A DNA stretch of 63,544 nucleotides, counting the filler, from Caldilineae bacterium (lineage in GTDB: Bacteria > Chloroflexota > Anaerolineae > DTLA01): assembly GCA_037446815.1 (NCBI GenBank). It is 3 parts of 3 records of this genome, joined end to end, with 100 filler letters (N's around TTAATTAATTAA, not from the genome) between each part and the next. Parts side by side here need not be neighbours in the genome. Positions count along the whole stretch, not along the records: positions 1 to 24,794 come from JBBIHX010000031.1; 2 more parts are not named here. One strand, given 5' to 3'. Numbering within the stretch: position 1 is the first letter of the stretch; each line of letters starts with the position of its first letter. A model generated the notes under the pieces. That model was given only the letters and a program-made list of their open reading frames with translations. It had not been told where the DNA came from and did not search any database. The translations under genes and the position numbers were made by a program. Below are positions 2,974 through 32,392 of the stretch, piece after piece.

Positions 2974-3999
2974 ATGACGGTTGAAGAATTCATGGACAGC
3001 CAGGTCAACCCGGAACCGATCCTCGTGGTGGAGGACGAGGATTCGGTGCGGAGCCTCCTGCTCCGAAGACTCACCCGCGCCGGCTTCACCGTAGTGGGAG
3101 CCGCCAACGGCATAGATGCCCTGGCCCTGCTCCGCGAACAGTGCTTCGGGGTCGTCCTCTCGGACATCAACATGCCCAAACTGAACGGGCTGGAACTCCT
3201 GCAAATCATCCGCGAGACCTACCCCGATGTCGTCGTCATCATGGTAACGGCCTACGGCGACCTTGATCATGCCATCTCGGCCATGCGGTTGGGCGCGTCG
3301 GACTATGTCGTGAAGCCGTTTGACCTGGATCAGATGATGCGCGCGGTGCAGCAGGCCCTGCGCCTGCGCCAGCGCAACCTGGCCCGCCGCTACATGGAGT
3401 TACACGCTCGCGCCCACCAGCCCCCAGAGACCGGCCAGCGGCTTCTCCTCAGCACCGTCATGGCCCTGGCCAACAGCCTGGAAGCCAAAGACCCGTACAC
3501 CGTGGGGCACTCGCAGCGGGTAGCCACCCTGGCCCAGCGACTGGCAGGCGCCCTGGGCCTCCCGGAAAACGAGCAGGAATACATCCGCATGGCGGGCCTG
3601 CTCCACGACATCGGCAAAATCGGCATTCGCGAGGCGGTCATCAACAAGCCCGGCCCGCTGACGCCCGCAGAGTATGCCCATATCCAGACCCACCCGCTCA
3701 TCAGCGAGCGGATTCTTGTACCGGTAGCAGAACTCAACGGCGCGCTCCGCATGATACGGAACCATCATGAGCATTGGGATGGCAGCGGATATCCCGACGG
3801 ACTCAAGGGCCTGGAAATCCCTGTGGGCGCGCGCATCTTGACCATTGCCGACGCCTACGATGCGATGACATCGCAACGCCCGTACCGGCCCCCTCTGCCT
3901 CACGAGGTAGCCCTTCGCGAGATAGAAAAAGGCGCCGGTCGGCACTTTGACCCGACACTGAGTCGGCTCTTCCTGGAGTTGATGGCGCAGCAACACTGA
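2974..3999 (+). CDS. Response regulator with HD-GYP c-di-GMP phosphodiesterase domain (RpfG-like)
   Basis: REC motifs VEDE, SDINMP, TAY and KPF. HD-GYP motifs HDIGK, HHEHWDGSGYP and ADAYDAMTS. Confidence 0.92.
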   Translation: MTVEEFMDSQVNPEPILVVEDEDSVRSLLLRRLTRAGFTVVGAANGIDALALLREQCFGVVLSDINMPKLNGLELLQIIRETYPDVVVIMVTAYGDLDHAISAMRLGASDYVVKPFDLDQMMRAVQQALRLRQRNLARRYMELHARAHQPPETGQRLLLSTVMALANSLEAKDPYTVGHSQRVATLAQRLAGALGLPENEQEYIRMAGLLHDIGKIGIREAVINKPGPLTPAEYAHIQTHPLISERILVPVAELNGALRMIRNHHEHWDGSGYPDGLKGLEIPVGARILTIADAYDAMTSQRPYRPPLPHEVALREIEKGAGRHFDPTLSRLFLELMAQQH

Positions 4000-4043
4000 A
4001 AGCAAATGCCGCGGGCGCTCATCCGCCCGCACAGGTGCAGACC

Positions 4044-4685
4044 ATGACGAACATCCCTGATGCAGCAACAGAAGGCGGCACAACACCGGACGAAACGCTC
4101 CGTGTGGAGATTCACACGGGCGACTACGTGGCGCTGGGGACGGTGGTTACCCGGCATCAGAGGCTCATGGATGTGCTGGAGAACCTGGCTTCCCCCTATC
4201 TGCGCCTGGAAAGCGCGCAGGTTCAGTTCCTTGGCCGGGGTAGCGCGCCCCAGGCCACGGACATTCTCCTCGTCAGCAGCGACCACGTTCGCATTGCCAT
4301 ACCCTACGAGGAGGAACGCGCCCCCGAAGCGGGAAGGCTACACCCGCGTTACGTCCCCAAATACCCTGTGGCCGCGTCGTTGTACATGGCAGACATGGAG
4401 ATAGAGGGCAACATTCACATCCGCGAGGGTGAAGACGCGTTCCTGGCGGCGCAGAACCTCTCGGAGCCGTTCATTGCCGTTACGGAAGCCCTCGTGCGAT
4501 ACCTGGACCCAAGGCGCTCGCTCCCATTCCGGTGTCCGGTGGTGATCGTGAACCGCAGATTTGTGAACCTAATCGCCTTGAGGCCACGGCCCAGAGACCA
4601 GGCCCGTTCTCGGCTGGAACGGCTCTTGGCCCAGTCCAGTTCCCTGGCCGCGCGTATGCACCGCGCACCCAGTTTATCGGCATGA
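4044..4685 (+). CDS. Hypothetical protein with two internal ~70-aa beta-rich repeats (DUF6812-like)
   Basis: Two similar halves (VEIHT...RLMDVLE...YLRLESA...LLVSSDHV / ASLYM...IEGNIH...FIAVTEA...IVNRRFV). Stop overlaps the next start (ATGA). Confidence 0.6.
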   Translation: MTNIPDAATEGGTTPDETLRVEIHTGDYVALGTVVTRHQRLMDVLENLASPYLRLESAQVQFLGRGSAPQATDILLVSSDHVRIAIPYEEERAPEAGRLHPRYVPKYPVAASLYMADMEIEGNIHIREGEDAFLAAQNLSEPFIAVTEALVRYLDPRRSLPFRCPVVIVNRRFVNLIALRPRPRDQARSRLERLLAQSSSLAARMHRAPSLSA

Positions 4686-5605
4686 TGGAGAACCGTCCCA
4701 TGGATGAACTGACCCTGCACACGGCAGAAGGACGCGATGCCATCCAGAACCTAGACGAACGCGAACTGTGCCTGATTCCGCTGCTGGGCACGGGCATTAG
4801 CGGGATGCGCGTGCTCACGCAGCGCGAAACCGTCATCGGGCGCCAGCCCGGCGTTGACCTTCTCGTGCGCGATCCGAGGGTCTCACGACAGCACTGCAAG
4901 ATCGTGCTCACCAACGCCGGCCCGAAGATCGTGGACCTGGACAGCCGTAACGGGACCTTCGTCAACGACGTTCAGGTGAAAGAAACGTACCTGAACGACA
5001 GCGACCTGATTCGCGTGGGCGACACGGTTTTCCGCATCCGGTACGTGGACCGCGTGGAGGTGGAGCGCCAGGAGGAACTCTACCGCAAAGCAACCCGCGA
5101 CAGTTTGACAGGATTACACAATCGGCAGTATCTTCTGGAGCGTTTGCACGAGGAACTGGCGCGGGCGCGACGACATCATTTCCCGGTATCGTTCCTGATG
5201 ATAGACATTGACCACTTCAAACTCATCAACGATCGGCTTGGCCACGCCGCGGGAGACCGAGCGCTGGCCGTGGTAGCCGGTATCCTGCGCGACAACGTGC
5301 GCAGCGAGGACACCGTCGCGCGCTACGGCGGGGAGGAATTTGCGGTCCTTGCGCCGTTCTCCGACGTCAGCGGCGCCCGCGTCCTCGCCGAGCGACTGCG
5401 CGCGCTCGTGGAGCGAAACGAATGGTCCAAAGGCGAAGGCCGAATGCCCATCACCGTCAGCATCGGCGCGGCCACGTTCCCCAATGACGCAGACGCGGGC
5501 CTGGACCTCATCCACAAGTCCGACATCGCCCTGTATCGCGCCAAGCACGCCGGGCGCAATCGCGTTGTGAACTACTCCGCCAGCGGCGAGGACACAGAGA
5601 GGTAA
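4682..5605 (+). CDS. FHA-domain diguanylate cyclase
   Basis: FHA motifs IGR, VSRQH and SRNGT. GGDEF domain has DSLTGLHNR, DIDHFK, I-site RSED and an intact GGEEF. Confidence 0.9.
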   Translation: MMENRPMDELTLHTAEGRDAIQNLDERELCLIPLLGTGISGMRVLTQRETVIGRQPGVDLLVRDPRVSRQHCKIVLTNAGPKIVDLDSRNGTFVNDVQVKETYLNDSDLIRVGDTVFRIRYVDRVEVERQEELYRKATRDSLTGLHNRQYLLERLHEELARARRHHFPVSFLMIDIDHFKLINDRLGHAAGDRALAVVAGILRDNVRSEDTVARYGGEEFAVLAPFSDVSGARVLAERLRALVERNEWSKGEGRMPITVSIGAATFPNDADAGLDLIHKSDIALYRAKHAGRNRVVNYSASGEDTER

Positions 5606-5610
5606 CATCC

Positions 5611-8600
5611 GTGATCAGCGAAGGCTCTCGCCAGAACCGCATAGGCCCGTATCGGCTCATCCGCGTCATCGGGCGCGGCGGCATGGGCGCCGTCTACCTT
5701 GCCGAACATCAGCAGACCCACCGTGAGGTGGCGCTCAAGGTATTGCCACCGGAGTACGCGGCCATGCCCGACCGTGTGGCGCGATTCCTCCGCGAAGGAA
5801 TGGCGGGCGCCCGCCTGCGCCACAAGAACATCGTGGAGACCTACGAGGTCGGCGAGGACAACGGTGCCTACTTCATCGCGCTGGAGTACATCCAGGGCGA
5901 GAGTCTGCGCGAACGCATGGACAGGGGCGCGTTGGACCTGCGCACGTCGCTGGACATCGCCCTGCAGGTCAGCGAGGCCCTTGCCCACGCCCACGCCCAC
6001 CATATCGTCCACCGCGACCTGAAGCCCAGCAACATCATGCTCACCGCCGACGGCACGGCCAAGGTCATGGACTTTGGCCTGGCCAAGGTGGCCGACGCCT
6101 CGGCGGTAACGATGGCCGGCGTCCTCATGGGGACAGCGGCCTACATCTCGCCCGAGCAGGCCCGCGGCGACGCCACCGACGGCCGGAGCGACCTGTACTC
6201 GCTCGGCGTCATGCTCTATGAGATGATCAGCGGGCAACTCCCCTTCTCCGCCGAAAGCACGGCCTCGCTGATTTTCAAGCACATCAACGAGCAGCCCACA
6301 CCCGTCCGACGGCTTGCGCCCGAGGTTCTGCCCGCCGTGGACGGCCTCGTGTGGCGGCTTCTGCACAAGCAGCCCGAACAGCGATTCCAATCCGCCGTTG
6401 AACTGGCGTCGGCCATTCGCCTGTGCATGGAGGCGTTGGACAAGGGAACCGTCCTGCCGGCGACCCTGTTTGACCCCACGCTCCCGTCCGACGAAACCCT
6501 GGCGACGTCGCAAATCCCTCTTGTCGGCCGGGAGCGGGAAATGACACTCCTGCGCCAGGCGCTAGACCGGGCCCGCCAGTCCAAGGGGGGCCTGTCCCTC
6601 ATCAGCGGCGAGGCCGGGCTCGGCAAGACGCGGCTGGTCGTAGAAACCCAGCGGGAGGCGCAAAGCGCGGGCTTCCTGTGCCTGACCGGGCATTGCCTGT
6701 ACCAAGAAGACCCCAACCCCTACCTGCCTTTTGTGGAGATTCTGCAATCGTACCTGGACACGCGCGAGACCATGGTGGGCACGCCCGAGGCCGACGACAT
6801 CATCACCCACCTGATTACCCGCCTGTCCAACTTCCTGCCCTATGCGGCAAATGCCGGGACGCCCATCGCGCAGGACGCGCTCGGGTGGGCCGATGCCCAG
6901 ACCGCCCTGTTTGAAACCATCCGCCAGGTGCTCACCGCGCTGGCCCAGAAGCAGCCGCTGCTCCTGTTCGTGGACGACCTACAGTGGGCCAGCGTCGCGA
7001 CGCTGCGCCTGCTGCACTACCTGGCCCGCAACATTCAGGCCGCGCCCATCCTGCTCATCGGCACATACCGCGAGGAAGACGTGCAGGAGGAAGCCGGCGC
7101 CGAACCTCACCCGCTGCAAGAAGTCATGCGGCGCATGAGCCGTGAGCGCCTGTTTGAACGCATCACCCTCTCGCCGCTGAGCCGCGAGCAGACCGATGCG
7201 CTGGTGAAACATGTGCTGCCGGGCGCGCCGGAGGATGCCGATTTCCTGGCGCGCGTGTACGCCGAAACCGAAGGCAACCCCTTCTTCATCCTTGAGGCCC
7301 TGCGGATGTGGCAGGAAGAAGGGCAACTGGTGTACACCGAGGCCGGCTGGCGCCTCATCGGAAAGCCCGAGGAGATGCGCGTGCCCCAGCGCGTGCACGA
7401 CGTCATCGTTCGGCGGCTCCAGCGCCTGGACGAGACAAGCCGCGAGATACTGGACGTGGCCGCCGTTACCGGGCGCCGATTCACCGTGGAGACCATCAGC
7501 GCCGCGCTGGCGCTGCCAAAAGTGGAATTGCTGCGCCGCCTCGGGCGACTGGAGAAGAATCACCAACTCATCGCCTTTGAGAGCGGCACGTACACATTTA
7601 CCCACCACCTGATCCGAGATGTCCTGTACGACGAACTGGCCGAGCCGCTGCGCGTGGAGTATCATCTCATCATCGCCAAGCGGCTGGAAGAACTGTTCGC
7701 CGGGCGGCTGGAGGAAGTCGCCTACGACCTGGCGCACCACTTCTACCAGGGCGCGGACTACCGCACCGGACTCCGCTACGCGCAGATGGCCACGGAACGC
7801 GCCGAACGCCAGTGGGCGCTGGAAGAGGCGCTCCACTTCAACCATTTGGCTCTGGATTCTATCGCCCACCTGCCGAGCGACCCCCACTACACCCGACAGG
7901 AGTGCGAACTTCGCCAGCGGCGCGCCGCGCTGCTGCAGGTGGCGGGCGACCTCCAGGGAGCGCTTGCGGAATTGGAGCGGGCGCGTGCCCTTAGCGAGCA
8001 GCAGGCCGACGCCGCGCGCGAGGCCGAAGTGCTGACGGAAATCGCGCGCATCCACGCCCGAAGAAGCGACTGGGATGCCGCGCTGCAACTCGCGTCGCGC
8101 GCCATGGCCATCGCCGAGAAAGCCGGCCACAAGCCCATCATCGCCCAGGCCCTGTCGGTGCGCGCCATCGTCCTCTTCCAGACGGGCAACTGGGACGATG
8201 CGCTGGACAGCCTCCGTTGGGCAGAAGGGCTTGTGGAGGGCGATGAGCATGCCCTCCTGCGGGCGCGCATCCTGGGGAATATGGGCAACGTTCTGGATGC
8301 GCAGGGCAACAAGGAAGAGGCCATCCGCCACTATCGCCAGGCCATCCGCATCTTTGAGGCCGGAGGCCGTCTGCTGGACAGCGCGCGCGGCTCGCTGAAC
8401 CTCGGGTTCGTCTATGCGTCCATGGCGAAGCCCGACGAGGCTCGCGCCTGCTACCAAGACGCCCTCGCCATCTTCCGCAAGGTCGGCGACGTGTATCACA
8501 CAGCCCTCACCCACCAGCATCTCGCCGAACTGGAACTGGCCCAGGGCAACATCGCGGCGGCCGCCGACCTGTGCAAAACCGCGCGCGACACGTTCCTGCG

Positions 8601-8931
8601 CATCGGCGACGAGTTGGGCACCGCCGACACGAGCCGAATCCTGGGGCGCATCGCCGCGCGCAACCGCGACATCCCGCAGGCGCAGAAGCACTACGCCGAA
8701 GCCATCGCATCGTACGGCGAGTTGGACGACCGTCTCAACTGGGCCGAAACCTCGCGCGAACTCGGTCGGTTCCTCGCCGAATCCAACACCACGCCCGAGG
8801 CGCTTCAATACTTGCAGGCAGCAGCCGACGCCTACGAAGCCCTCGGCCTGACAAAGGAGGCAACAGAAACCAAACACGAAATCAGCGTGCTCAAACAGGG
8901 TGTGCCTATGGGCGGCGCGTCTGCCCGCTGA
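5611..8931 (+). CDS. Ser/Thr protein kinase - AAA+/STAND-like ATPase - TPR fusion
   Basis: Kinase motifs GRGGMG, VALK, HRDLKPSN, DFG and YISPE. Walker A GEAGLGKT, Walker B LFVDDLQWA, GNPFF, then a long C-terminal TPR array. Confidence 0.9.
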   Translation: MISEGSRQNRIGPYRLIRVIGRGGMGAVYLAEHQQTHREVALKVLPPEYAAMPDRVARFLREGMAGARLRHKNIVETYEVGEDNGAYFIALEYIQGESLRERMDRGALDLRTSLDIALQVSEALAHAHAHHIVHRDLKPSNIMLTADGTAKVMDFGLAKVADASAVTMAGVLMGTAAYISPEQARGDATDGRSDLYSLGVMLYEMISGQLPFSAESTASLIFKHINEQPTPVRRLAPEVLPAVDGLVWRLLHKQPEQRFQSAVELASAIRLCMEALDKGTVLPATLFDPTLPSDETLATSQIPLVGREREMTLLRQALDRARQSKGGLSLISGEAGLGKTRLVVETQREAQSAGFLCLTGHCLYQEDPNPYLPFVEILQSYLDTRETMVGTPEADDIITHLITRLSNFLPYAANAGTPIAQDALGWADAQTALFETIRQVLTALAQKQPLLLFVDDLQWASVATLRLLHYLARNIQAAPILLIGTYREEDVQEEAGAEPHPLQEVMRRMSRERLFERITLSPLSREQTDALVKHVLPGAPEDADFLARVYAETEGNPFFILEALRMWQEEGQLVYTEAGWRLIGKPEEMRVPQRVHDVIVRRLQRLDETSREILDVAAVTGRRFTVETISAALALPKVELLRRLGRLEKNHQLIAFESGTYTFTHHLIRDVLYDELAEPLRVEYHLIIAKRLEELFAGRLEEVAYDLAHHFYQGADYRTGLRYAQMATERAERQWALEEALHFNHLALDSIAHLPSDPHYTRQECELRQRRAALLQVAGDLQGALAELERARALSEQQADAAREAEVLTEIARIHARRSDWDAALQLASRAMAIAEKAGHKPIIAQALSVRAIVLFQTGNWDDALDSLRWAEGLVEGDEHALLRARILGNMGNVLDAQGNKEEAIRHYRQAIRIFEAGGRLLDSARGSLNLGFVYASMAKPDEARACYQDALAIFRKVGDVYHTALTHQHLAELELAQGNIAAAADLCKTARDTFLRIGDELGTADTSRILGRIAARNRDIPQAQKHYAEAIASYGELDDRLNWAETSRELGRFLAESNTTPEALQYLQAAADAYEALGLTKEATETKHEISVLKQGVPMGGASAR

Positions 8932-9007
8932 AACTCGCAGGCTGTGGCCAGTCCTAAAGCGTGGGGCGCGACCACCAAACGCAAGAAAGGCGACTTTCTC
9001 TGCCAAG

Positions 9008-9098
9008 GCACCGCCCGAAAAGGCAAACCATTCGTAAGGATGGGGCGCAAAGCTACGGATCCTACCTGTTGGGATAGCCGGGCTACCGAAGGAGGTGC
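9008..9098 (+). ncRNA. c-di-GMP-I (GEMM) riboswitch
   Basis: GGCAAACCATTC-GTAA-GGATGGGGCGCAAAGCTACGGATCCTA...GGGATAGCCGGGCTACCGAAGG matches the GEMM consensus (GGCAAA, GNRA-capped P2, GCAAAG, P3, ACCGA). It sits directly before the RBS. Confidence 0.88.
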
Positions 9099-9101
9099 AA
9101 A

Positions 9102-9497
9102 ATGAAACTGAATAAGAAACAACTCACCATTGCGCTGCTGCTGGCGCTCATCCTGGTCATGACACTGTCCGTCATGCCAGCATCAGCCGGCGGCAAGACC
9201 ATCGTCGTCCAGAAGTTCATACGGGCCAACACCGGGGGAGTTCTGCGAGCAGCGGGGATCACCCTCGTCATACCTGCCAATGCACTCCCTCACAACGCGC
9301 TGGTTACCATGAAGATCAACCGCGACCAGCGTGAGGTGGAGTTCTCTCCCGACATGACATTCGCGCGGCCCGTGTATGTGAATTTCGGATTCCAGGTGAA
9401 CGGCCTCAACTACTGGGACGGGAGCCGCTGGGTTCCCGTCCAGATGGTGGGCCGAACGGCGATCCTGAACCACTTCTCTCGTTACGCGTGGTGGTAA
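9102..9497 (+). CDS. Small secreted ZU5-like protein with C-terminal HFS motif
   Basis: Sec signal ending ASA and GGAGGT RBS. GG...LVIPANAL...F.RPV...WDGSRW...LNHFSRY resembles ZU5/bacterial HFS domains. Confidence 0.7.
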   Translation: MKLNKKQLTIALLLALILVMTLSVMPASAGGKTIVVQKFIRANTGGVLRAAGITLVIPANALPHNALVTMKINRDQREVEFSPDMTFARPVYVNFGFQVNGLNYWDGSRWVPVQMVGRTAILNHFSRYAWW

Positions 9498-9553
9498 AGA
9501 CCCGGACTGCCGACAGAAGCCGTCAACAACACCCTGAAAGGACTGGCCATGCC

Positions 9554-9590
9554 GAAGCCCCCGACCCGTGACTCGGGGGCTTCTTATTCT
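9554..9590 (+). terminator. Probable intrinsic terminator
   Basis: GAAGCCCCCGA-loop-TCGGGGGCTTC hairpin followed by TTATTCT, between convergent genes. Confidence 0.7.
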
Positions 9591-17111: not shown

Positions 17112-17692
17112 GTCGTCCTGAGGCGCGAACCGCCGAAGAACCTCGTGGAGCAAATTGGCAATTTGCTCCACTTTCCCCCACCCGTGCCATCCGCGCTATC
17201 CGTGGATCAACCCTGGAGATGCTTCGCCCTCGGCTCAGCATGACAACGGAAGGGGGGACCACGTGCGACGCACCTCGGAGGTGCGTCGCACGTTCCCCAT
17301 TGGCGTGGATTCGCGCCCATTCGCGGTTACCAAACTGTCATCTGACCCGCGAACCGCTGAAGAATCTCGTGGAGCAAATTGGCAATTTGCTCCACTTTCC
17401 CCCACCCGTGCCATCCGCGCNNNNNNNNNNNNNNNNNNNNNNNNNNNNNNNNNNNNNNNNNNNNNNNNNNNNNNNNNNNNNNNNNNNNNNNNNNNNNNNN
17501 NNNNNNNNNNNNNNNNNNNNTATCCGTGGATCAACCCTGGAGATGCTTCGCCCTCGGCTCAGCATGACGCAATGGGGCTGTCATTCTGAGGCGCGAAGCG
17601 CCGAAGAATCTCGCCATATCCGCCCCATCCGTGCCATCCGTGTTATCCGTGGACCAACCCTGGAGATGCTTCGCCTTCGCCTCAGCATGACA
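17112..17692. repeat. Tandem nested REP cluster spanning a 100-N gap
   Basis: Three units bounded by GTC(A/G)T(C/T)CTGA...GAAGAA(T/C)CTC and GAGATGCTTCG...CTCAGCATGAC arms. Family B palindromes at 17145 and 17369; family A at 17261-17293. Confidence 0.8.
17421..17520. other. Assembly gap (100 N)
   Basis: N run. Its flanks CCATCCGCGC / TATCCGTGG are contiguous in the neighbouring repeat copy. Confidence 0.95.
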
Positions 17693-17778
17693 ACGCTAGC
17701 GCAGCAAGCGCGTGGCCTCGGACTTGTGTTTTCGCCCGCCGTCGTGTAAACTACGTCCACGTCAACGAGGAGAGCGCT

Positions 17779-19299
17779 ATGATCCGATTCCCACGCTGCA
17801 GTGGCATTCTGATGCACCCAACCTCGCTGCCGAGCCGATACGGGATTGGCGACATGGGGCCTGCCGCCTACCGATTCGTGGATTTCCTGGCATCGGCAGG
17901 CCAATCGTACTGGCAGGTGCTGCCCTTGAGCCCCACCGGCTTCGGCGACTCGCCGTATCAGGGGCTGTCCGTCTTCGCCGGCAACCCGCTCCTCATCAGC
18001 CCCGACCTGCTCTTGGAAGAGGGCCTTCTCGCGCCCGAAAACCTCGCCCACGTGCCGCAATTCCCCGACGACCGCGTGGACTTCGGGCGCGTCATTCCGT
18101 ACAAGACCGCGCTCCTGGAGCAGTCGTTCGCCTACTTCCAAAGCCACGCCACCGACGCCCAGCGTGCCGCCTTTGCCGCGTTCTGCGCCGACAATGCCTC
18201 CTGGCTGGAGGACTACGCTCTGTTCGCCGCGCTGAAGGAACACTACAACCTGCGCCCCTGGCATGAGTGGGACAGGGACGTCGCCATGCGCCGGACCGCT
18301 GCCCTGGCGGAATGGCGCGAGCGCCTCCGCGACCGCCTGGAATCCCAGAAGTACCGCCAGTGGCTATTCCTCACCCAGTGGCTGCGGCTCAAGCGATATG
18401 CCAACGGGCGCGGCATCCGCATCATCGGCGACATCCCGCTCTACGTGGCGCTGGACAGCACCGACGTCTGGGCCAATCCGCGCCTGTTCCACCTGGACGA
18501 AAACCTGAAACCGACGGTAGTATCCGGCGTCCCGCCCGACTACTTCAGCGCCACCGGCCAACTCTGGGGCCACCCCATCTACCGCTGGGACCTCATGGCT
18601 GAGGAGGGCTACGCCTGGTGGATCGCGCGGTTCCGCATGGCCTTCACCCAGGCCGACGTGATTCGCATTGACCACTTCAGGGGCTTCTACAACTACTGGG
18701 AGGTTCCCGCCGGGCAGGAGACCGCTGTCGTGGGCCGCTGGCTCTATGGGCCGGGCGCCCGCCTGTTCCACGCGGTGAACCAGGCTCTGGGTGAGGTCTC
18801 CATCATCGCCGAGGATCTGGGCGACTTTGACACGGCCTCGCGCGCGGGCGTGGATGCGCTGAAGGCGGAGTTCGGCTACCCCGGGATGAAGATCCTCCAA
18901 TTCGCGTTCGGCGGGGACCCGAGCGACCCATTCCTGCCGCACAACTACACCCGCGACTGCGTCGTGTACACCGGCTCGCACGACAACGACACGACGCTTG
19001 GCTGGTACCAGGTAACGTCCACCGAGAAAGAGCGCGATTTCGCGCGCCGGTACATGGGAGTGGATGGCTCCGACATCGCGTGGGACCTCATCCGCCTAGC
19101 GTGGGCGTCTGTCGCGAATACTGCGATGACCACCACCCAGGACCTGCTCAGCCTCGGCCATGAGGCGCGCATGAACCTCCCCGGAAGTTCCGGCGCGCCC
19201 AACTGGTGCTGGAGAATGCTTCCCGGCGCGCTGACCGATGCGGTTGGCGCCCGGCTGCGCGAACTCACCTTCATCTACGGACGGCTCAGACAAGGATAA
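17779..19299 (+). CDS. malQ: 4-alpha-glucanotransferase (GH77)
   Basis: GILMHPTSLP, IIGDIP, GVPPDYFSATGQLWG, RIDHFRG, AEDLG and YTGSHDNDT. Confidence 0.95.
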   Translation: MIRFPRCSGILMHPTSLPSRYGIGDMGPAAYRFVDFLASAGQSYWQVLPLSPTGFGDSPYQGLSVFAGNPLLISPDLLLEEGLLAPENLAHVPQFPDDRVDFGRVIPYKTALLEQSFAYFQSHATDAQRAAFAAFCADNASWLEDYALFAALKEHYNLRPWHEWDRDVAMRRTAALAEWRERLRDRLESQKYRQWLFLTQWLRLKRYANGRGIRIIGDIPLYVALDSTDVWANPRLFHLDENLKPTVVSGVPPDYFSATGQLWGHPIYRWDLMAEEGYAWWIARFRMAFTQADVIRIDHFRGFYNYWEVPAGQETAVVGRWLYGPGARLFHAVNQALGEVSIIAEDLGDFDTASRAGVDALKAEFGYPGMKILQFAFGGDPSDPFLPHNYTRDCVVYTGSHDNDTTLGWYQVTSTEKERDFARRYMGVDGSDIAWDLIRLAWASVANTAMTTTQDLLSLGHEARMNLPGSSGAPNWCWRMLPGALTDAVGARLRELTFIYGRLRQG

Positions 19300-19310
19300 G
19301 AGAGGGCACT

Positions 19311-20042
19311 ATGTCCGTCCCGGACTTTCCCGTTGACCTTCAACGACGTTTTGAGGCCGACATTGTAAACGATAGAATCCCTCGCGGCTTCAAGGCCGGG
19401 GTTGAGCCATTCGCCGCCCGCTACGACGCATCGCCCGAAGACATGCGCCGGATCTTGCATGCCTGCCACCGCAAGGGGTTGCTGGAACCCGCGGGCGACG
19501 AGTTTGTGGTGCTGGGCCTGCTGGCGCCGCAGGTGGAGAGCCTGTTCCAGCACACCAGCCGCGCAGGATTGAGTCCCACATCTCAGGTGCGGCAAGTTGT
19601 CATTGAACCCGCCTCGGAGGACGCCGCGCGCCGCCTGGACGTCCCCGCTGGCTCGCCCGTCTACAGGCTGGAGCGCACCCGCGTCGTGAACGGCGAGGTC
19701 GTCGCCAATCAGGTGAACTTCATCCCGTTTGAAGTCTGCCCCGGATTGGAGTCCGACGACATGACGCACTACTCGTTCCAGATGCTTCTGGAGGGCAAAT
19801 ACCATGCAGTCGTGGCGCGTGTGCACGAGGAAGTCGCGTTTCGCGCCGCGGACGAGGCCGACCGCAAAGTCTTGGGCCTGGCGGAGGACTCCCCCGTGCT
19901 CATCGTGCAGCGATTGAGCCTCAGCCGGACGGAGCGACCGCTGGTGTGGGCCGACATTCACATCCGCCCCGACCGCTACCGCTATGTCGCCTCGCTGTGG
20001 CCGCAGGCAGCCCGGCTGTTGGACCCGTTGCAAAAACCTTGA
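19311..20042 (+). CDS. GntR/HutC-family regulator with UTRA domain
   Basis: Divergent N-terminal wHTH-like region and a C-terminal UTRA pattern (VYRLERTR...SPVLIVQRLS). Confidence 0.75.
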   Translation: MSVPDFPVDLQRRFEADIVNDRIPRGFKAGVEPFAARYDASPEDMRRILHACHRKGLLEPAGDEFVVLGLLAPQVESLFQHTSRAGLSPTSQVRQVVIEPASEDAARRLDVPAGSPVYRLERTRVVNGEVVANQVNFIPFEVCPGLESDDMTHYSFQMLLEGKYHAVVARVHEEVAFRAADEADRKVLGLAEDSPVLIVQRLSLSRTERPLVWADIHIRPDRYRYVASLWPQAARLLDPLQKP

Positions 20043-20130
20043 GGCCGGCAATGTTACCGCAAGGCAATCATTAGCGGCGCATCGGGCAACTCGGTGTACT
20101 CTTATAGTACCAACGTTGGGAGGGAAACCC

Positions 20131-20961
20131 ATGTCAGTTGCAGATACCCGAATCTACCCCATCAACACCGGATGGGCCGAAGCAGACCTCGGCACCTACA
20201 TCTTCTTCAAAGGCCCGGGCGGCCAGAAGACCGAAATCCCCATGATCTGCTTCTACGTGGACACTGGCGAGCACAAGCTCATGGTGGACACGGGGATTCC
20301 CGACGCCGACCGCGCGACCCGCTACCACCACAAAGCCCGCAAGGCCGACTGCCTGGACAGCCCCGACGCGCTTCTGAAGATGGGCGTGAACCCCGACGAC
20401 ATTGACATCTGCATCTTCACGCACCTGCACTGGGATCACGTCTCGTGCATGAAGCGCTTCCGAAACGCCCGCTACATCGTCTCGGCGGCGGAGTTGCAGT
20501 GGGCCTACAACCCCTTGCCGCTCTACTACCGCTCCTACGAATCGCCCATCCTGGGCATTGAAGCGCCCTTTGTCGGCTGCCACTTTGAGGTCGTGGAGGG
20601 CGAAACAACCATTGTGCCCGGCGTCAAAGTCTTCCCAACCCCCGGGCACACGCCGGGCCACCAGTCGGTTGAGGTGCAGACCGCGGCCGGCGCCATCGTC
20701 CTCGTCGGCGATGCCATCTTCACGTACCGCAACTTTGAGCCGAACCTGGACGAGCACTGGCGCTATTGGGTGCAGCAGCGATTCGTCAGTATGATAGACG
20801 GCTGGCGAAGCATGGAGGAGATTGACCGGCGCTCGGACTTCATCCTGCCCTGCCACGACGCCAAAGTCATGGAGCACCCGGTGTATCCGTATCCCGATAT
20901 GCCGCTCCGCAAGCGGAGGGAGCCCATTCCCGGCGCGCCGTTCTACTTCGCGGGGATCTAG
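20131..20961 (+). CDS. Metallo-beta-lactamase-fold hydrolase, AHL-lactonase family
   Basis: VDTG, THLHWDH, TPGHTPGHQ, GDA and PCHD. Confidence 0.85.
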   Translation: MSVADTRIYPINTGWAEADLGTYIFFKGPGGQKTEIPMICFYVDTGEHKLMVDTGIPDADRATRYHHKARKADCLDSPDALLKMGVNPDDIDICIFTHLHWDHVSCMKRFRNARYIVSAAELQWAYNPLPLYYRSYESPILGIEAPFVGCHFEVVEGETTIVPGVKVFPTPGHTPGHQSVEVQTAAGAIVLVGDAIFTYRNFEPNLDEHWRYWVQQRFVSMIDGWRSMEEIDRRSDFILPCHDAKVMEHPVYPYPDMPLRKRREPIPGAPFYFAGI

Positions 20962-20988
20962 TCGCGCCCGCCACAAGCGAGGTGAACC

Positions 20989-22251
20989 GTGAGGAGCAAG
21001 CGTACTGTCGTTGTCGTGGCCACCCTGGACACGAAGGGCGAGGCCGCCGCGTACCTGCGCGACGAAATCGCGTCCTGGGGGCTGGACACCATCCTCATTG
21101 ACCCGGGCGTGCTGGGCCGCCCGACGGTCAAGGCCGACATCTCGCGAGAGGAGGTGGCCCAGGCCGCCGGCACCACGCTGGCCGACCTCATTGCCCAGGG
21201 CAAGAAAGGCGTCTGCATTGCCAAACAGACCGAGGGCCTCTGCAACATCGTGCGCAGACTCTGGGAGGAAGGGCGGCTGGACGGCTTCGTGGCCATCGGC
21301 GGCGGGCAAGGCACATCCATCGGCACCGCCGCCATGCGCGTACTGCCCGTGGGCGTTCCCAAACTCATGCTCTCCACCATCGCCAGCGGGCTATTCCGCT
21401 TCGGCCCGTATGTCGGCACAAAAGACATCTGCATGATGCACTCGGTAACCGACATCCTGGACGTGAACGCCGTCAGCCGCCCCATTCTCCGCAATGCGGC
21501 CAATGCCATCGCGGGCATGGCGCTGCGCCACCCCGCCCCGGCCCAACGCGAGAAGCCGGTCATCGCCGTTACGCAACTGGGCGTAACGACGCCCTGTGTG
21601 ATGCGCGTGAAGGGCATCCTGGAGTCCAGGGGCTACCAGATTGTACCGTTCCACGCCAACGGCTCCGGCGGCCCCGCCATGGAAGACCTGATAGAAGCCG
21701 GCAAGTTCGTGGGCGTCATTGACCTCAGCGTGCACGAGGTCATTGACGGCATCTACGACGGCTTGGCCGGCGCCCAGAATCGCCTGGAATCGCTGACCCG
21801 CTACGCCATACCGGCCGTTGTATCCGTGGGCGGCAACGACTACCTGCTGTGGGAGAGCGTGGACAAGGCTCCGCCCGCCTACCGCGACCGGCCCAAGATG
21901 GTGCACAATGCGCAGATGACGGTGTTCCAGCCCGCGCCCGAAGAGATGGCCGCCGCCGCGCGTGCCATGATCGGCCCGCTCAATCGCGCCCTCGGCCCGA
22001 CGCTGGTCATCATCCCGACGGGCGGCTTCTCGGACATGAACCAGCCGGGCCGCGAACTGTACAACCCCGAGGGCAACCAGGCGATGATTCGCGCATTCCA
22101 GGACGGGCTTCGCCCGGAGGTTCCGCTGGTGCTGATACACGCCCACATCAACAACCCGGTGTTTGCCGATGCGGTGGCCGACTGCATGACCCGCCTGTTG
22201 GATGGCGAAGCGCCTGCGGCCATCGCGGCGCGATACAGAAACGAGGGATAG
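20989..22251 (+). CDS. Tm-1-like ATP-binding protein (UPF0261), paralog 1
   Basis: TLDTKG, GGGQGT, LPVGVPKL, YVGTKDI, FHANG, GGFS and HINNP. Confidence 0.85.
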   Translation: MRSKRTVVVVATLDTKGEAAAYLRDEIASWGLDTILIDPGVLGRPTVKADISREEVAQAAGTTLADLIAQGKKGVCIAKQTEGLCNIVRRLWEEGRLDGFVAIGGGQGTSIGTAAMRVLPVGVPKLMLSTIASGLFRFGPYVGTKDICMMHSVTDILDVNAVSRPILRNAANAIAGMALRHPAPAQREKPVIAVTQLGVTTPCVMRVKGILESRGYQIVPFHANGSGGPAMEDLIEAGKFVGVIDLSVHEVIDGIYDGLAGAQNRLESLTRYAIPAVVSVGGNDYLLWESVDKAPPAYRDRPKMVHNAQMTVFQPAPEEMAAAARAMIGPLNRALGPTLVIIPTGGFSDMNQPGRELYNPEGNQAMIRAFQDGLRPEVPLVLIHAHINNPVFADAVADCMTRLLDGEAPAAIAARYRNEG

Positions 22252-22255
22252 CGCC

Positions 22256-23347
22256 ATGAGGCTCACGGCGGACACGGACTTCGGTCGCGTGCGGCGAGCG
22301 ATGCTCCGCCAAGGCGACAACGACCGCGTGCCGCTGTTTGAACTTTCCGTCCACAACACCATCAAGGCACGGTTTCTCGGGCGCCCCGTGCGGACGTGGG
22401 CGGATGAAGTGGCGTTTTGGCAGGGGGCCGGGTACGACTTCGTGCCCGTGCGCGCCGGAGTCCGCTCGCTGGCGCGCGGCGTGCACCCCGCCGTAACCGA
22501 ATGGCTCCGGCAGCGAAACCCCGAAGCCCTCCAGCAGCAGGCCCACGGGTGGGCCAGCGAGACTGTGGGCATCATCGCCACGCGCAGCGACTTTGAGCAG
22601 TTCCCGTGGCCGGAGCCCGAAAGCCTCAGCGGCTACGAGGCCCACCCAACCCTGGATGCCCAAATGACTGCCATCGCAGAGTGCCTTCCCCCGACCATGA
22701 AAGCCATCGTCCAACTGGGCTACATCTTCATGGGCGCGTGGCAAATCATGGGGCTGGAGAACTTCAGCCTCCAGTTGGCCGACGACCCGGCCTTCGTGAA
22801 GGCGGTCATAGACAAACTCGGCGGTCTGCAGATGGCCGTGCTGGACATCTTGCTGCAGCACGAGTGCGTCGGGGCCATCTGGATGCCCGATGACCTGTGC
22901 TACAACGCCGGCCCGCTGGTGTCGCCCGCAGTGTACCGTCGGCTCGTGTACCCGTGGTACCAGGCCATCGTCGCGCGATGCCACCAGGCCGGCATTCCCA
23001 TCGGATTTCACAGCGACGGAGACCTGACCCACGTGCTGGCCGACCTGGTGGATTGCGGCTTTGACTGCATCCACCCGTTTGAGCCGCCCATGAACGACAT
23101 CGTCGCTGTCAAGCGTGCGTGGGGGCATCGGATGTCGGTGGCGGGCAACATTGACCTGAAGGCGACCCTGTGCGCGGGCACGCCCGCCGACGTAGAGGCC
23201 GAGGTGCGCGCGAAGGCCACCGCTTTGGCGCCGGGCGGCGGCTGGCTCATCGGCTCCAGCAACTCCATCCCCGACTTCGTCCCGTTTGACAACTACGTGG
23301 CGCTTCTGGAAAGCAGCCTGAAATACGGGCGTTGCGCGGCCCGTTGA
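22256..23347 (+). CDS. Uroporphyrinogen decarboxylase / methylcobamide methyltransferase superfamily protein
   Basis: DRVP, MPDD, FHSDG, AGNID and SSNSI. Confidence 0.8.
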   Translation: MRLTADTDFGRVRRAMLRQGDNDRVPLFELSVHNTIKARFLGRPVRTWADEVAFWQGAGYDFVPVRAGVRSLARGVHPAVTEWLRQRNPEALQQQAHGWASETVGIIATRSDFEQFPWPEPESLSGYEAHPTLDAQMTAIAECLPPTMKAIVQLGYIFMGAWQIMGLENFSLQLADDPAFVKAVIDKLGGLQMAVLDILLQHECVGAIWMPDDLCYNAGPLVSPAVYRRLVYPWYQAIVARCHQAGIPIGFHSDGDLTHVLADLVDCGFDCIHPFEPPMNDIVAVKRAWGHRMSVAGNIDLKATLCAGTPADVEAEVRAKATALAPGGGWLIGSSNSIPDFVPFDNYVALLESSLKYGRCAAR

Positions 23348-23366
23348 CCCATGACGGAGGGCAGCG

Positions 23367-24605
23367 ATGAGAATCGCAATCATTGGCACACTGGACACCA
23401 AGGGCAAGGAGGTTGGCCTGATTCGGGACACCATCGCCGCCCTGGGACATGGCACGCTCATCCTTGACCCGGGCACTCTCGGCCAGCCCGCCATCCCGGC
23501 CGACGTGCCCCGCGAGCAAATCGCGCAGGCTGCGGGCTGGGAATTGCCCGACCTTCTTGCAACGCGCGACAAGGTGCTCATCCAATCCACGATGACGAAG
23601 GGCCTCGTCAGCCTTGTATCCCGCCTCTACCAGGAGGGCGCATTCCAGGGGGTCATCGCCGTCGGCGGCGCGCAGGGAACGGCCATCGCGACCGCGGCCA
23701 TGCGCGCGCTGCCCGTGGGCGTGCCGAAGATCATGGTGTCCACCGTCGCCTGCGGCAAGACCACATTCGGCCCCTACGTGGGAACCAAGGACATCGCCAT
23801 GCTCCACTCGGTGGCCGACATCTCGGGGCTGAACCGCATCACGCGCCGACTGCTGGCCCAGGCCGCGCGGGCCGTTGTGGCAATGGCCGCCGAGCCGCCT
23901 GCTGCCGAAACGCCCGACCGAGAACTCGTCGCCATCACCCAGGCAGGCATTACAACCCCCGGCGTGATGGCGGTCAAGGAGCGGCTGGAGCGCCTCGGCT
24001 TTGAGGTCGTTGCCTTCCACTGCAATGGCATCGGCGGCCAGGCAATGGAAGAACTCATCGCCCAGGGCGTGATCCGCGGCCTCATAGACTTCTCGCCCCA
24101 CGAGATCACCGACCTCCTCTTCGGCGGCCTCATGCCCGCGGCGCCCGACCGCATGAAGGCCGCGGGGCTGGCGGGCATTCCCCAGGTGGTGGTGCCAGGC
24201 TGCACCGACATCCGCCTGCACGGCGTGGGCGACGAACTGCCACCCGACGTGCGCGGCCGCGCGTGCGTGCAACACTCCCCCACCCACACCCACGTGCGCA
24301 CAACACCCGAGGAAATGGAGCACGTCGCCCGCTTCATCGCCGCTCGCCTGAACGAGGGCACCGGGCCGCGGGCCTCCGTCATCCCCCTGCGCGGATACAG
24401 CATGCTGAACAAGCAGGGGCACCCGCTGTACGACGAGGCCGCGAACATGGCCTACGTGCTCACCATGCGCCGCGAACTCAAGCCGGAAGTGCGGCAGGTT
24501 GAGGTGGACGCCCACATCAACGACCCGGAGTTCGCCGACGTTGTGGTGGACGTGTTCATGTCGTTGCGCGGCGAGGCAGAAAAAGCCGCCAAGCCCGGCC
24601 CCTAG
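23367..24605 (+). CDS. Tm-1-like ATP-binding protein (UPF0261), paralog 2
   Basis: GTLDTKG, GGAQGT, YVGTKDI, FHCNG and AHINDPEFA. Confidence 0.85.
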   Translation: MRIAIIGTLDTKGKEVGLIRDTIAALGHGTLILDPGTLGQPAIPADVPREQIAQAAGWELPDLLATRDKVLIQSTMTKGLVSLVSRLYQEGAFQGVIAVGGAQGTAIATAAMRALPVGVPKIMVSTVACGKTTFGPYVGTKDIAMLHSVADISGLNRITRRLLAQAARAVVAMAAEPPAAETPDRELVAITQAGITTPGVMAVKERLERLGFEVVAFHCNGIGGQAMEELIAQGVIRGLIDFSPHEITDLLFGGLMPAAPDRMKAAGLAGIPQVVVPGCTDIRLHGVGDELPPDVRGRACVQHSPTHTHVRTTPEEMEHVARFIAARLNEGTGPRASVIPLRGYSMLNKQGHPLYDEAANMAYVLTMRRELKPEVRQVEVDAHINDPEFADVVVDVFMSLRGEAEKAAKPGP

Positions 24606-24628
24606 CAAGCGCATCGGAGGCAGAGCGC

Positions 24629-24794
24629 ATGGTCGACAAGATGACCCCGCGAGAGCGCGTAATCGCAGCCGTGGAGCGGCGCTGCCCCGACCGCGTGCCC
24701 ATTGACATCGGCGGCTCATCGGTAACCACCATCATCGGGGAGGCGTACGAGCGCCTGAAGCAAACCCTGGGCATGGCGGGCGAGACGCGGTACA
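24629..24794 (+). CDS. UroD-superfamily protein, 5' fragment truncated at contig end
   Basis: MTPRERV...PDRVPIDIGG is a typical UroD-family N-terminus. It runs into Ns. Confidence 0.7.
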
Positions 24795-28729: not shown

Positions 28730-28758
28730 AGAGGTCGCCCGTAGAGACGGCAAGCACG

Positions 28759-28908
28759 GAGCCGGTTTCCTCTTGTGTTGGTGAACCGTAGGCGCACTCT
28801 CCTCGTGTGTCATTGCGAGCGAAGCGAAGCAATCGCACGCCCCGGAGATTGCTTCGGGCGCTCTGCGCCCACGCAATGACAAATACCAACAGACTTTGGA
28901 ACCGAATC
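28759..28908 (+). mobile_element. 150-bp MITE copy 2
   Basis: Near-identical to 2560-2709, with a slightly degenerate left TIR. Confidence 0.7.
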
Positions 28909-28916
28909 GGCATCTA

Positions 28917-29066
28917 GAGTCGGTTTCATCTTGTGTTGGTGAAACGCATGGACACTCTCCTCGTGTGTCGTTGCGAGCGAAGCGAAGCAACCTCACGCCC
29001 CAGAGATTGCTTCGGGCGCGGAGCGCCCTCGCAATGACAAATACCAACAGACTTTGAAACCGAGTC
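28917..29066 (+). mobile_element. 150-bp MITE copy 3
   Basis: GAGTCGGTTTCA...TGAAACCGAGTC, with GGCATCTA on both sides. Confidence 0.75.
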
Positions 29067-29076
29067 GGCATCTACC

Positions 29077-29430
29077 GTCATTCTGAGCGGCGGAGAGCGA
29101 AGAATCTCGCCCCTCACCCCGGCCCTCTCCCGAAGGGCGAGGGCGTATCGCCTTCGGCTCAGCATGACAGAGCGGGGAGGCGGCGTGCGGGGCAGACCAA
29201 CACAAGATGGAACCGAGTCGGCCGAGGCGAGGGCGCAAGGCCCATTGGAAACCGCCATTGGCGTGGGGATGGCAGGAGAGCCGAAATCCACCGCCGAGCA
29301 CACAGAGTGCGGAGAAAATCAGAATTCCTCTGCGTCCTCTCTACGACTCTGCGGTGAGTCAATCTGCCGCAAGATCGGCCAAAACGGAAACGCTGTGCCC
29401 CTTTCCCCATTCGCGTAGATTCGCGTTATC
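29077..29430. repeat. Composite REP cluster with orphan MITE end (29196-29219)
   Basis: GTCATTCTGAG...CTCAGCATGAC encloses a family E unit. ACCAACACAAGATGGAACCGAGTC is a reversed MITE left end. A CACCGC..GAG...CTCTGCGGTG hairpin follows. Confidence 0.65.
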
Positions 29431-32226: not shown

Positions 32227-32242
32227 CGTTTCCGTCTCCTTG

Positions 32243-32392
32243 GAGTCGGTTTCATCTTGTGTTGGTGAACCGTAGGCGCACTCTCCTCGTGTGTCATTGC
32301 GAGCGAAGCGAAGCAATCCCACGCCCCGGAGATTGCTTCGGGCACTGCGTGCCCTCGCAATGACAGCCACCAACAAACTTTGGAACCGACTC
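32243..32392 (+). mobile_element. 150-bp MITE copy 4, directly upstream of the peptidase RBS
   Basis: GAGTCGGTTTCA...TGGAACCGACTC, flanked by TCTCCTTG / TCTACTTG. Confidence 0.75.

Follow-up and report, generated by a model that had tools for sequence, protein, structure and literature searches.

A candidate c-di-GMP relay linking a STAND-TPR kinase, a DgcB-type cyclase and a riboswitch-controlled secreted protein in uncultured Anaerolineae

Results and discussion

A 63,544-nucleotide (nt) stretch of DNA from Caldilineae bacterium (assembly GCA_037446815.1; genome of 3.19 Mb, 65% GC), referred to below as the window, carries a cyclic di-GMP (c-di-GMP) signalling locus on its first contig (positions 1-24794). 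Five plus-strand open reading frames (ORFs) extend from 2974 to 9497 between a divergent nitroreductase gene and a convergent M20 peptidase gene with a peptide ABC transporter, and close homologues carry Anaerolineae labels in the source records. We lean towards reading this locus as a dedicated c-di-GMP relay, in which a Hanks-type Ser/Thr kinase would phosphorylate threonine 5 (T5) of the neighbouring diguanylate cyclase, and the resulting c-di-GMP would switch off translation of a probably self-cleaving secreted protein through a riboswitch. Every part of the unit has a known relative, and the combination was not found in print: literature searches on FHA/GGDEF/kinase and on Chloroflexota/riboswitch returned no description of it.

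A sequence-only reading of this DNA had described five co-directional genes with gaps of 44 and 5 nt, a c-di-GMP-I aptamer and a closing terminator, and these were borne out. The ORFs lie at 2974-3999, 4044-4685, 4700-5605, 5611-8931 and 9102-9497, with 44 nt between the first two and 5 nt between the cyclase and kinase genes, and the catalytic and phosphothreonine-binding motifs of the HD-GYP, FHA, GGEEF and kinase domains are all intact. The second gene, which encodes a DUF6812 protein, was missing from both the title and the model of that reading. Its coupling of the cyclase gene through an ATGA overlap had to be given up: the ATGA is present at 4682-4685 but is not the cyclase start. The start was placed at ATG 4700, leaving a 14-nt gap after the DUF6812 gene, because the ATG of the ATGA in the four congeners is either out of frame, 20 nt before the MDEL codon, or absent, and because a GGAG(G) site precedes ATG 4700. 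Close cyclase homologues are 301-304 amino acids (aa) long.

The cyclase and its neighbouring kinase

The 301-aa product of the cyclase gene (4700-5605) has the tail-FHA-GGDEF architecture of Bdellovibrio bacteriovorus DgcB (Bd0742), as seen from Pfam and from a match to PDB entry 6HBZ over residues 37-289, which was also its best sequence match in PDB (3e-42). It has in common with DgcB a tail threonine with an acidic residue at -2, the FHA pocket, DxLT, an RxxD I-site and GGEEF. These features appear in the window as the tail MDELT5LHT, FHA residues G47-R48, S62-R63-x-H65 and N84, DxLT, D186, the I-site RSED and GGEEF. In all 13 aligned orthologues the phosphothreonine pocket (G47, R48, S62, R63, H65 and N84) is invariant, and of the tail residues after Met only T5 is unchanged, while Asp or Glu stands at -2 of the tail threonine in 12/13. 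It has been reported that Asp at the base-recognition position with a GGDEF-type motif indicates c-di-GMP, and Ser/Thr there a Hypr synthase making 3'3'-cGAMP (cyclic GMP-AMP) (PMC6456294). Since Asp186 occurs together with GGEEF, the predicted product is c-di-GMP and not cGAMP, and a Hypr synthase was rejected.

FHA gating of a cyclase is already known from DgcB, whose FHA domain binds its own phosphorylated tail (T14), the locked tail activating the enzyme (Meek et al. 2019, PMC6733907). By analogy, the kinase would phosphorylate T5 in the N-terminal tail of the present cyclase, the cyclase's own FHA domain would bind the phosphothreonine, and the GGEEF domains would then pair and produce c-di-GMP, with the RxxD I-site capping the output. 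No kinase for DgcB is identified in the DgcB paper, which gives the DgcB operon as containing a putative phosphatase (PMC6733907), and our literature search found no later work naming a kinase for a DgcB-type cyclase. The present locus differs from DgcB in that a kinase-STAND-TPR gene comes next, followed by a riboswitch-controlled target, and in the very short tail, with its threonine at position 5.

That next gene (5611-8931) encodes a protein of 1106 aa with Pkinase, AAA_16 and TPR matches in Pfam; no NCBIfam family reaches its cut-off for it. The motifs VALK, HRDLKPSN and DFG are intact, as are GEAGLGKT (Walker A) and LLFVDD (Walker B), and these motifs are invariant in 5/5 congeners. Walker A and B, the GxP motif (GNPFF) and the C-terminal TPR region together characterize it as a STAND fusion, and it has the TPR sensor in common with known proteins that combine a kinase, a STAND domain (AAA_16/MalT-like) and TPR. 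A ligand sensed by this TPR/STAND part would activate the kinase. Hanks kinases tied to cyclases have been reported as fusions, namely kinase-TPR-GGDEF in Clostridium thermocellum (PMC1262709) and kinase-tail-FHA-GGDEF in Sorangium (PMC6733907), whereas here the two are separate genes. Judged from these sequences, the locus likely offers a partner kinase for DgcB-type synthases.

A paralogue with tail, FHA and GGDEF (L039:6940-7872, contig C9) is present in all five genomes of the genus. Its active site is degenerate (SAGEV) and its tail is DgcB-like (LEQTIMI); it is a possible second substrate of the kinase.

The riboswitch and its predicted action on translation

The aptamer at 9013-9091, within a riboswitch at 9008-9098, is the sole Rfam match in the whole window and scored 68.8 bits as RF03167 and 67.2 bits as RF01051 (cut-off 35). 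RF03167 is thus ahead by 1.6 bits, but its GGC-variant label was rejected, the consensus being CGCGAA, with G at the A47 position, against CGCAAA here. The ligand positions G20, A47 and C92 fall at 9022, 9049 and 9086 and are kept in 19/19 full aptamers; A47 we take to be a ligand-relevant position. G20 and C92 are ligand contacts and predict c-di-GMP binding (PMC6140456). The three residues exclude the GGC-variant ligand, and by its sequence the aptamer is of the canonical c-di-GMP type. It shares the full aptamer with c-di-GMP-I (GEMM-I) riboswitches (RF01051/RF03167) and differs from them in having P1 directly over the ribosome site, a competing strand in the upstream ORF (in this genus) and an mRNA closed by a 5'/3' helix.

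GCACC at 9008-9012 and adjacent C's extend P1 by pairing over the Shine-Dalgarno sequence AGGAGG (9090-9095), and P1 extends into the AGGAGG-UG ribosome site in 19/19 aptamers. Because the extended P1 covers the Shine-Dalgarno sequence, the riboswitch is predicted to be a translational OFF switch: c-di-GMP would stabilize the aptamer and thereby repress translation of the secreted protein encoded just downstream. For the readout of c-di-GMP on this protein, which the sequence-only reading had assigned to the riboswitch, the prediction is OFF rather than ON.

Within the final kinase codons, a predicted anti-aptamer (8898-8919) can pair with the 5' strand of the aptamer (about 9007-9029) at -29.2 kcal/mol, reached by 1/500 shuffles. 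The corresponding duplex in the diverged locus L157 has another sequence and an energy of -23.1 kcal/mol (5/500 shuffles). Third positions are invariant in 12 of the last 13 kinase codons in this genus, a level that 4/1084 windows of codons reach. In this genus the last kinase codons would, without ligand, capture the 5' strand of the aptamer and free the ribosome site. Since this alternative pairing enters the kinase ORF, one transcript is implied in the genus.

The riboswitch also goes with the kinase gene in its distribution. The 27 secreted-gene loci that were parsed comprise 19 with a full aptamer (17 distinct), one cut by a contig end and seven without an aptamer. The kinase gene is upstream in 19/19 aptamer-bearing loci, counting L155, which shows only the last kinase codons, and in 0/7 aptamer-less ones.

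Other RNA or mobile elements were considered. An 8-bp CAGGGTGT/ACACCCTG pseudoknot was proposed by eye and dropped, without a supporting Rfam match. A group I intron, pistol ribozyme, retron and inverton had no Rfam match either, and neither a reverse transcriptase nor a recombinase was seen among the window ORFs. The only other c-di-GMP-I aptamer of the genome (L139; G000:C13:1367-7707) lies upstream of two genes that by eye encode secreted, subtilisin-like proteases with VNWGS repeats at the C-terminus, followed by a 912-aa membrane GGDEF + HD-GYP protein, and has a leader of about 130 nt between aptamer and start codon. By its sequence, this is another local c-di-GMP cluster whose output is secreted.

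Conservation of the unit

All four congeners (4/4) keep the order of the unit, and the diverged locus L157 keeps it with identities of 53-78% by domain. The sequence-only reading had made synteny in relatives one of its tests, and the order is indeed kept outside the genus, in a second family that belongs to another Anaerolineae order; the window's own order is represented only by the five congeners. The core order DUF6812-cyclase-kinase-riboswitch-secreted gene is found with other flanks at the second-family loci L135, L159, L162 and L164 (L162 shares its leader and trailer with the G330 locus). Identities to the window are 45/53/45/35% for DUF6812, cyclase, kinase and secreted protein, the kinase value extending over 1073 aa. 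A full cyclase is present in 5/8 second-family genomes; the kinase follows in 4/5, one of them truncated, and the fifth stops at a contig end.

The first gene (2974-3999) encodes a REC-HD-GYP c-di-GMP phosphodiesterase (Pfam Response_reg 3.6e-30, HD_5 9.6e-43) with D64/T92/K114, the HD dyad H211-D212, HHExxDGxGYP, RPYR and the metal ligands of HD-GYP enzymes. It is a lineage-specific member: the intact second-family loci have no adjoining HD-GYP gene and carry an HTH_17-REC gene in the first slot instead. On this comparison, the 'eraser' is an add-on outside the conserved core; added at the head of the operon in this genus, it would reset the signal. The sequence-only reading had stressed the joint presence of writer, eraser, RNA reader, effector and NLR-like kinase, and all of these but the eraser belong to the conserved core.

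The second gene (4044-4685), whose product matches PF20660 (7.6e-10), lies directly 5' of the cyclase gene in every intact locus. The AlphaFold2 model of the protein (predicted local distance difference test, pLDDT, 76) has two tandem repeats, each resembling Sm/LSm folds. Nearly all top structural matches of both repeats were Sm/LSm chains with middling Z, the best being Lsm4 (VIA Z 7.8, root-mean-square deviation (rmsd) 2.4, 58 residues aligned), a Z below the tool's reliable range. It is a candidate RNA or protein adaptor and a conserved accessory. A role as c-di-GMP receptor through an invariant RxxD was considered and left unsupported, the motif being family-wide. Neither GGDEF nor HD-GYP was found within about 1.5 kb of other DUF6812 loci (0/30), and no paper mentioning 'DUF6812' was found in the literature search.

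Paired mRNA ends and promoters

A long-range helix of 13 bp (-23.4 kcal/mol, 0/100 shuffles) joins 8943-8955 with 9539-9551 and is present in both the minimum-free-energy and centroid folds of the whole region. It encloses the riboswitch and the secreted ORF, the 5' site being 143-159 nt before the start codon and the 3' segment immediately before the terminator. Helices of at least 11 bp and -19.8 kcal/mol or lower were found in 17/19 aptamer loci (0-1/100 shuffles); the other two have 9 bp (7-8/100 shuffles), and L157, when gaps are allowed, gave 0/300. The arms differ in sequence between the families, and cross-family pairs reach only -6.8 to -12.1 kcal/mol. In the second family the start of the 5' arm is a few bases 3' of the -10 box, which means that the mRNA ends pair. 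The helix is not a general property of aptamer-less relatives, where a gapped duplex was reached by 0, 13, 16, 21, 43, 194 and 267 of 300 shuffles at seven loci and is clear in 1/7. It probably stabilizes or times the mRNA of the secreted protein. Type I toxin mRNAs, for example Helicobacter pylori aapA, reportedly have such long-distance 5'/3' pairing. Paired mRNA ends are common to both, but here no toxin or antisense RNA is evident, and the helix of the aptamer loci, some 150 nt upstream of the ribosome site, leaves that site uncovered.

The terminator-like hairpin at 9554-9583 keeps its place in 4/4 relatives, although such hairpins are overall no commoner than in shuffles. The M20 peptidase gene converges on it from the opposite strand.

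At the head of the operon, a promoter with direct repeats of 11-bp period (TTCAC/TTTAC boxes) occupies 2835-2900, with a -10-like CACAAT at 2895-2900. The direct-repeat pattern was found at 6/6 operon starts of this lineage and at 7/7 promoters of aptamer-less secreted genes, against 0/20 other secreted-gene leaders and 0/3 second-family operon starts, in a partly circular comparison since the pattern was fitted by eye on the same sequences. A stricter pattern has two sites in the genome and 0-1 in each of five shuffles. The second four-box copy (G000:C12:16941-17006) directly follows a response-regulator gene and precedes the gene of a secreted protein, by eye OmpR-like and SIMPL-like, respectively; the OmpR-like gene is a candidate regulator of the operon. 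We infer that the operon promoter is probably activated by an OmpR/PhoB-type regulator. The whole unit would then be read from a response-regulator-type promoter, and the same type would drive the secreted gene alone in other Anaerolineae.

In the second family, a sigma70 promoter of the type TTGACN-17/18-TATAAT follows the kinase stop in 8/8 loci. An internal sigma70 promoter before the aptamer was rejected for this genus, the best score being 5-6 of 12 in 11/11 loci and TATAAT occurring in 0/11. Because such a promoter is missing there, the operon transcript is probably the RNA on which this genus reads the riboswitch. The single co-transcribed unit of the sequence-only reading thus fits this genus, where the alternative pairing enters the kinase ORF, but not the second family, where the riboswitch has its own promoter. 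The simplest reading of these sequences is that the secreted gene became separated from its usual promoter by the signalling genes and the riboswitch, and this would argue for a cassette that exists to control the secreted gene.

Weighing the relay against its alternatives

Several observations weigh against a dedicated relay, beginning with the link between kinase and cyclase. The genome has five other Hanks-kinase matches, so the partner of the cyclase need not be its neighbour, and the degenerate paralogue described above is a second tail-FHA-GGDEF protein in the same cell. The DgcB tail has Glu at -2 and hydrophobic residues at -3, +2 and +3, whereas the residues at +2/+3 are H/T in this genus; in the second family they are hydrophobic. 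In a lineage represented by L136, L165 and L166 the cyclase is still intact although most of the kinase gene, the riboswitch and DUF6812 have been lost, with a GAF-GAF-HD-GYP gene present and a deletion running from about kinase codon 65 into the secreted gene; because of this lineage, it appears that the cyclase can outlast the kinase. Among FHA+GGDEF loci of other phyla, several of them cut by contig ends, 1/10 has a kinase nearby, and Pfam shows no STAND domain in that kinase. The synteny seen among the congeners carries little information, as the flanks are collinear too, and the evidence comes from two independent lineages only. A wide distribution was not supported: among 400 other genomes of the phylum, with five candidates scored per genome, none of the matches listed spanned both FHA and GGDEF, 55 further matches lying outside that list.

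The five other kinase matches and the cyclase kept after kinase truncation would suit a cyclase that is phospho-gated by a kinase other than its neighbour, or by its FHA domain binding the autophosphorylated neighbour, the kinase-STAND-TPR protein then being a scaffold or effector, for example an NTPase of defence or stress. A part in conflict systems is common for STAND-TPR proteins, and the conserved activation-loop threonines T167/T175 could serve as FHA ligands. We regard this explanation as quite improbable, given that the adjacency of cyclase and kinase is kept across two orders (a 5-nt gap here, a 14-nt overlap in the second family), that the tail threonine is invariant and that Sorangium has the two fused (PMC6733907).

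The remaining adverse points concern the RNA. Modelled accessibility of the Shine-Dalgarno sequence falls only modestly in the window, from 0.60 to 0.35; it falls from 0.65 to 0.26 in L170, and among four second-family folds it is unchanged in two (L125 and L164) and reversed in one (L159), so that the folding model only weakly backs translational repression. The anti-aptamer duplex is not significant in any of the six second-family loci tested (6/6), and a helix energy of -19.8 kcal/mol is reached by 6/134 control genes of the genome, this gene included and ranking second. The unit could be a loosely clustered c-di-GMP island, in which kinase and cyclase would work on the global pool, with the riboswitch-secreted gene as just one responsive neighbour that has no private link. 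The separate sigma70 promoter of the second-family riboswitch, the variable HD-GYP slot and the recurrence of such clustering at the genome's other c-di-GMP-I aptamer, with its secreted genes and GGDEF/HD-GYP gene, all speak for it. We consider it unlikely, though worth keeping in view, because aptamer and kinase neighbour co-occur so strictly (19/19 versus 0/7), because the anti-aptamer is contained in a synonymously constrained part of the kinase ORF, and because the operon head carries the promoter type of the secreted gene. The dedicated relay remains our preferred reading.

Beside these comparisons, L166:5206-9195 was seen to be a decayed copy of the module, with GAF-GAF-HD-GYP between two DUF6812 pieces.

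The secreted protein and its C-terminal strand

The output gene of the proposed relay (9102-9497) encodes a 131-aa protein with no Pfam or NCBIfam match. A signal peptide was recognized by eye (ASA|GG at 27-29), and the AlphaFold2 model (pLDDT 86.8) has a beta-sandwich after a signal-like helix. This stand-alone domain matched ankyrin-B ZU5 with VIA Z 11.1 (rmsd 2.0, 98 residues aligned) and the GAIN domain of CD97 with Z 9.5; the top Foldseek rows were all ZU5 but had E above 0.001. The protein ends in H124-F125-S126-RYAWW, with an Hx(S/T) motif directly before the last strand (127-130). F-S-R and Trp are invariant in 22/22 aligned relatives and His is kept in 21/22.

It has been reported that MAIN domains are cut between F and S and that the pieces stay associated (Brogan and Rudner, bioRxiv 10.64898/2026.05.12.724683), and bacterial ZU5 autopeptidases have been predicted in large surface proteins (Zhang et al. 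2012, PMC3482391). The present protein has in common with MAIN/ZU5 autoproteolytic domains a ZU5/GAIN-like beta-sandwich, HFS before the last strand and a signal peptide. By this analogy it would probably cleave itself at HF|S, with six residues after the predicted cut; the SRYAWW strand would probably be kept non-covalently, and the protein would most likely act at the cell surface. The MAIN proteins described so far are large, averaging 158 kDa, with cargo domains and, in nearly all cases, a surface anchor (bioRxiv 10.64898/2026.05.12.724683), whereas the mature protein here has about 100 aa, neither N-terminal cargo nor C-terminal anchor, and nothing after SRYAWW. No description of cargo-less MAIN-like proteins was found in the literature, although the supplementary tables of the MAIN preprint (15,000 proteins) may list stand-alone members. 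The gene was found in 11/401 genomes of the class in one search and in 15/401 in another, three of these 15 being weak partial matches.

In the two lineages that have the kinase, the terminal hexapeptide is SRYAWW or SRWAWW at 20/20 parsed loci; at the loci without the kinase the ending is SRYSGW(F/Y) (7/7). This covariation, together with a secreted protein that has neither cargo nor anchor besides its predicted cleavable terminal strand, raises a closed feedback loop: the released SR[YW]AWW hexapeptide would be re-imported and sensed by the kinase TPR, and the product would shut off its own synthesis, as in quorum or shear sensing. Peptide sensing by TPR is known, and in this genus the flanks of the unit hold a peptide ABC transporter and an M20 peptidase. 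This loop is highly improbable, since the cleavage products of MAIN/GAIN domains normally remain bound (bioRxiv 10.64898/2026.05.12.724683), the secreted family also occurs without the kinase, the peptide type may merely follow phylogeny and the transporter flank is absent from the second family. Its fullest form would be an autocrine or mechanosensory loop, running from a Stachel-like SRYAWW, shed by the self-cleaved GAIN-like protein, to an NLR-like kinase that senses it by its TPR, and on via the cyclase tail and c-di-GMP to the riboswitch in its OFF state, with an end-paired mRNA and a tandem-LSm chaperone; this is a long shot, whose parts have eukaryotic parallels. If true, the tethered peptide of a microbial GAIN domain would for the first time have a signalling role.

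Two related groups of genes were seen. A small secreted family (P0140, P0145 and P0151) ends in HFSLYY(H/Y)RRR and not HFSRYAWW. Aptamer-less ZU5-like genes (L137:8380-10365, L138, L160, L167:1738-3807 and L169) follow a gene for a protein of 660-730 aa, by eye with a C-terminal membrane segment and a likely signal peptide, which had no Pfam match in 2/2 cases tested and is a possible surface partner of the ZU5-like protein.

Other features of the window

A palindromic repeat of about 150 bp at 2560-2710, also found at 28758-29230 and 32242-32392, has a core with 224 BLAST matches in the genome, 194 of them of at least 60 nt; we take it to be REP/MITE-like. A HisKA_7TM + PAS protein encoded on the minus strand at 309-1610 is without a kinase domain, has a Cys-rich tail (CARCKRIRD...HGICPEC) and is conserved in congeners. 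Positions 17521-24794, which follow an N-gap at 17421-17520, are 99.4% identical to the separate contig C143 of the same genome, either by duplication or as an assembly artefact.

Implications

The reach of the system is limited to a few uncultured Anaerolineae. Within them, the locus supplies a conserved adjacent kinase candidate, a defined phospho-site (T5) and a built-in riboswitch reporter, and Ser/Thr-kinase control of c-di-GMP could be reconstituted from three genes. The RNA design is unusual, in that the competing strand of the riboswitch is the coding end of the upstream gene, on an end-paired mRNA. The role of the C-terminal peptide of MAIN proteins is left as a question in the preprint (bioRxiv 10.64898/2026.05.12.724683), and the stand-alone MAIN/ZU5-like secreted family described here bears on that question.

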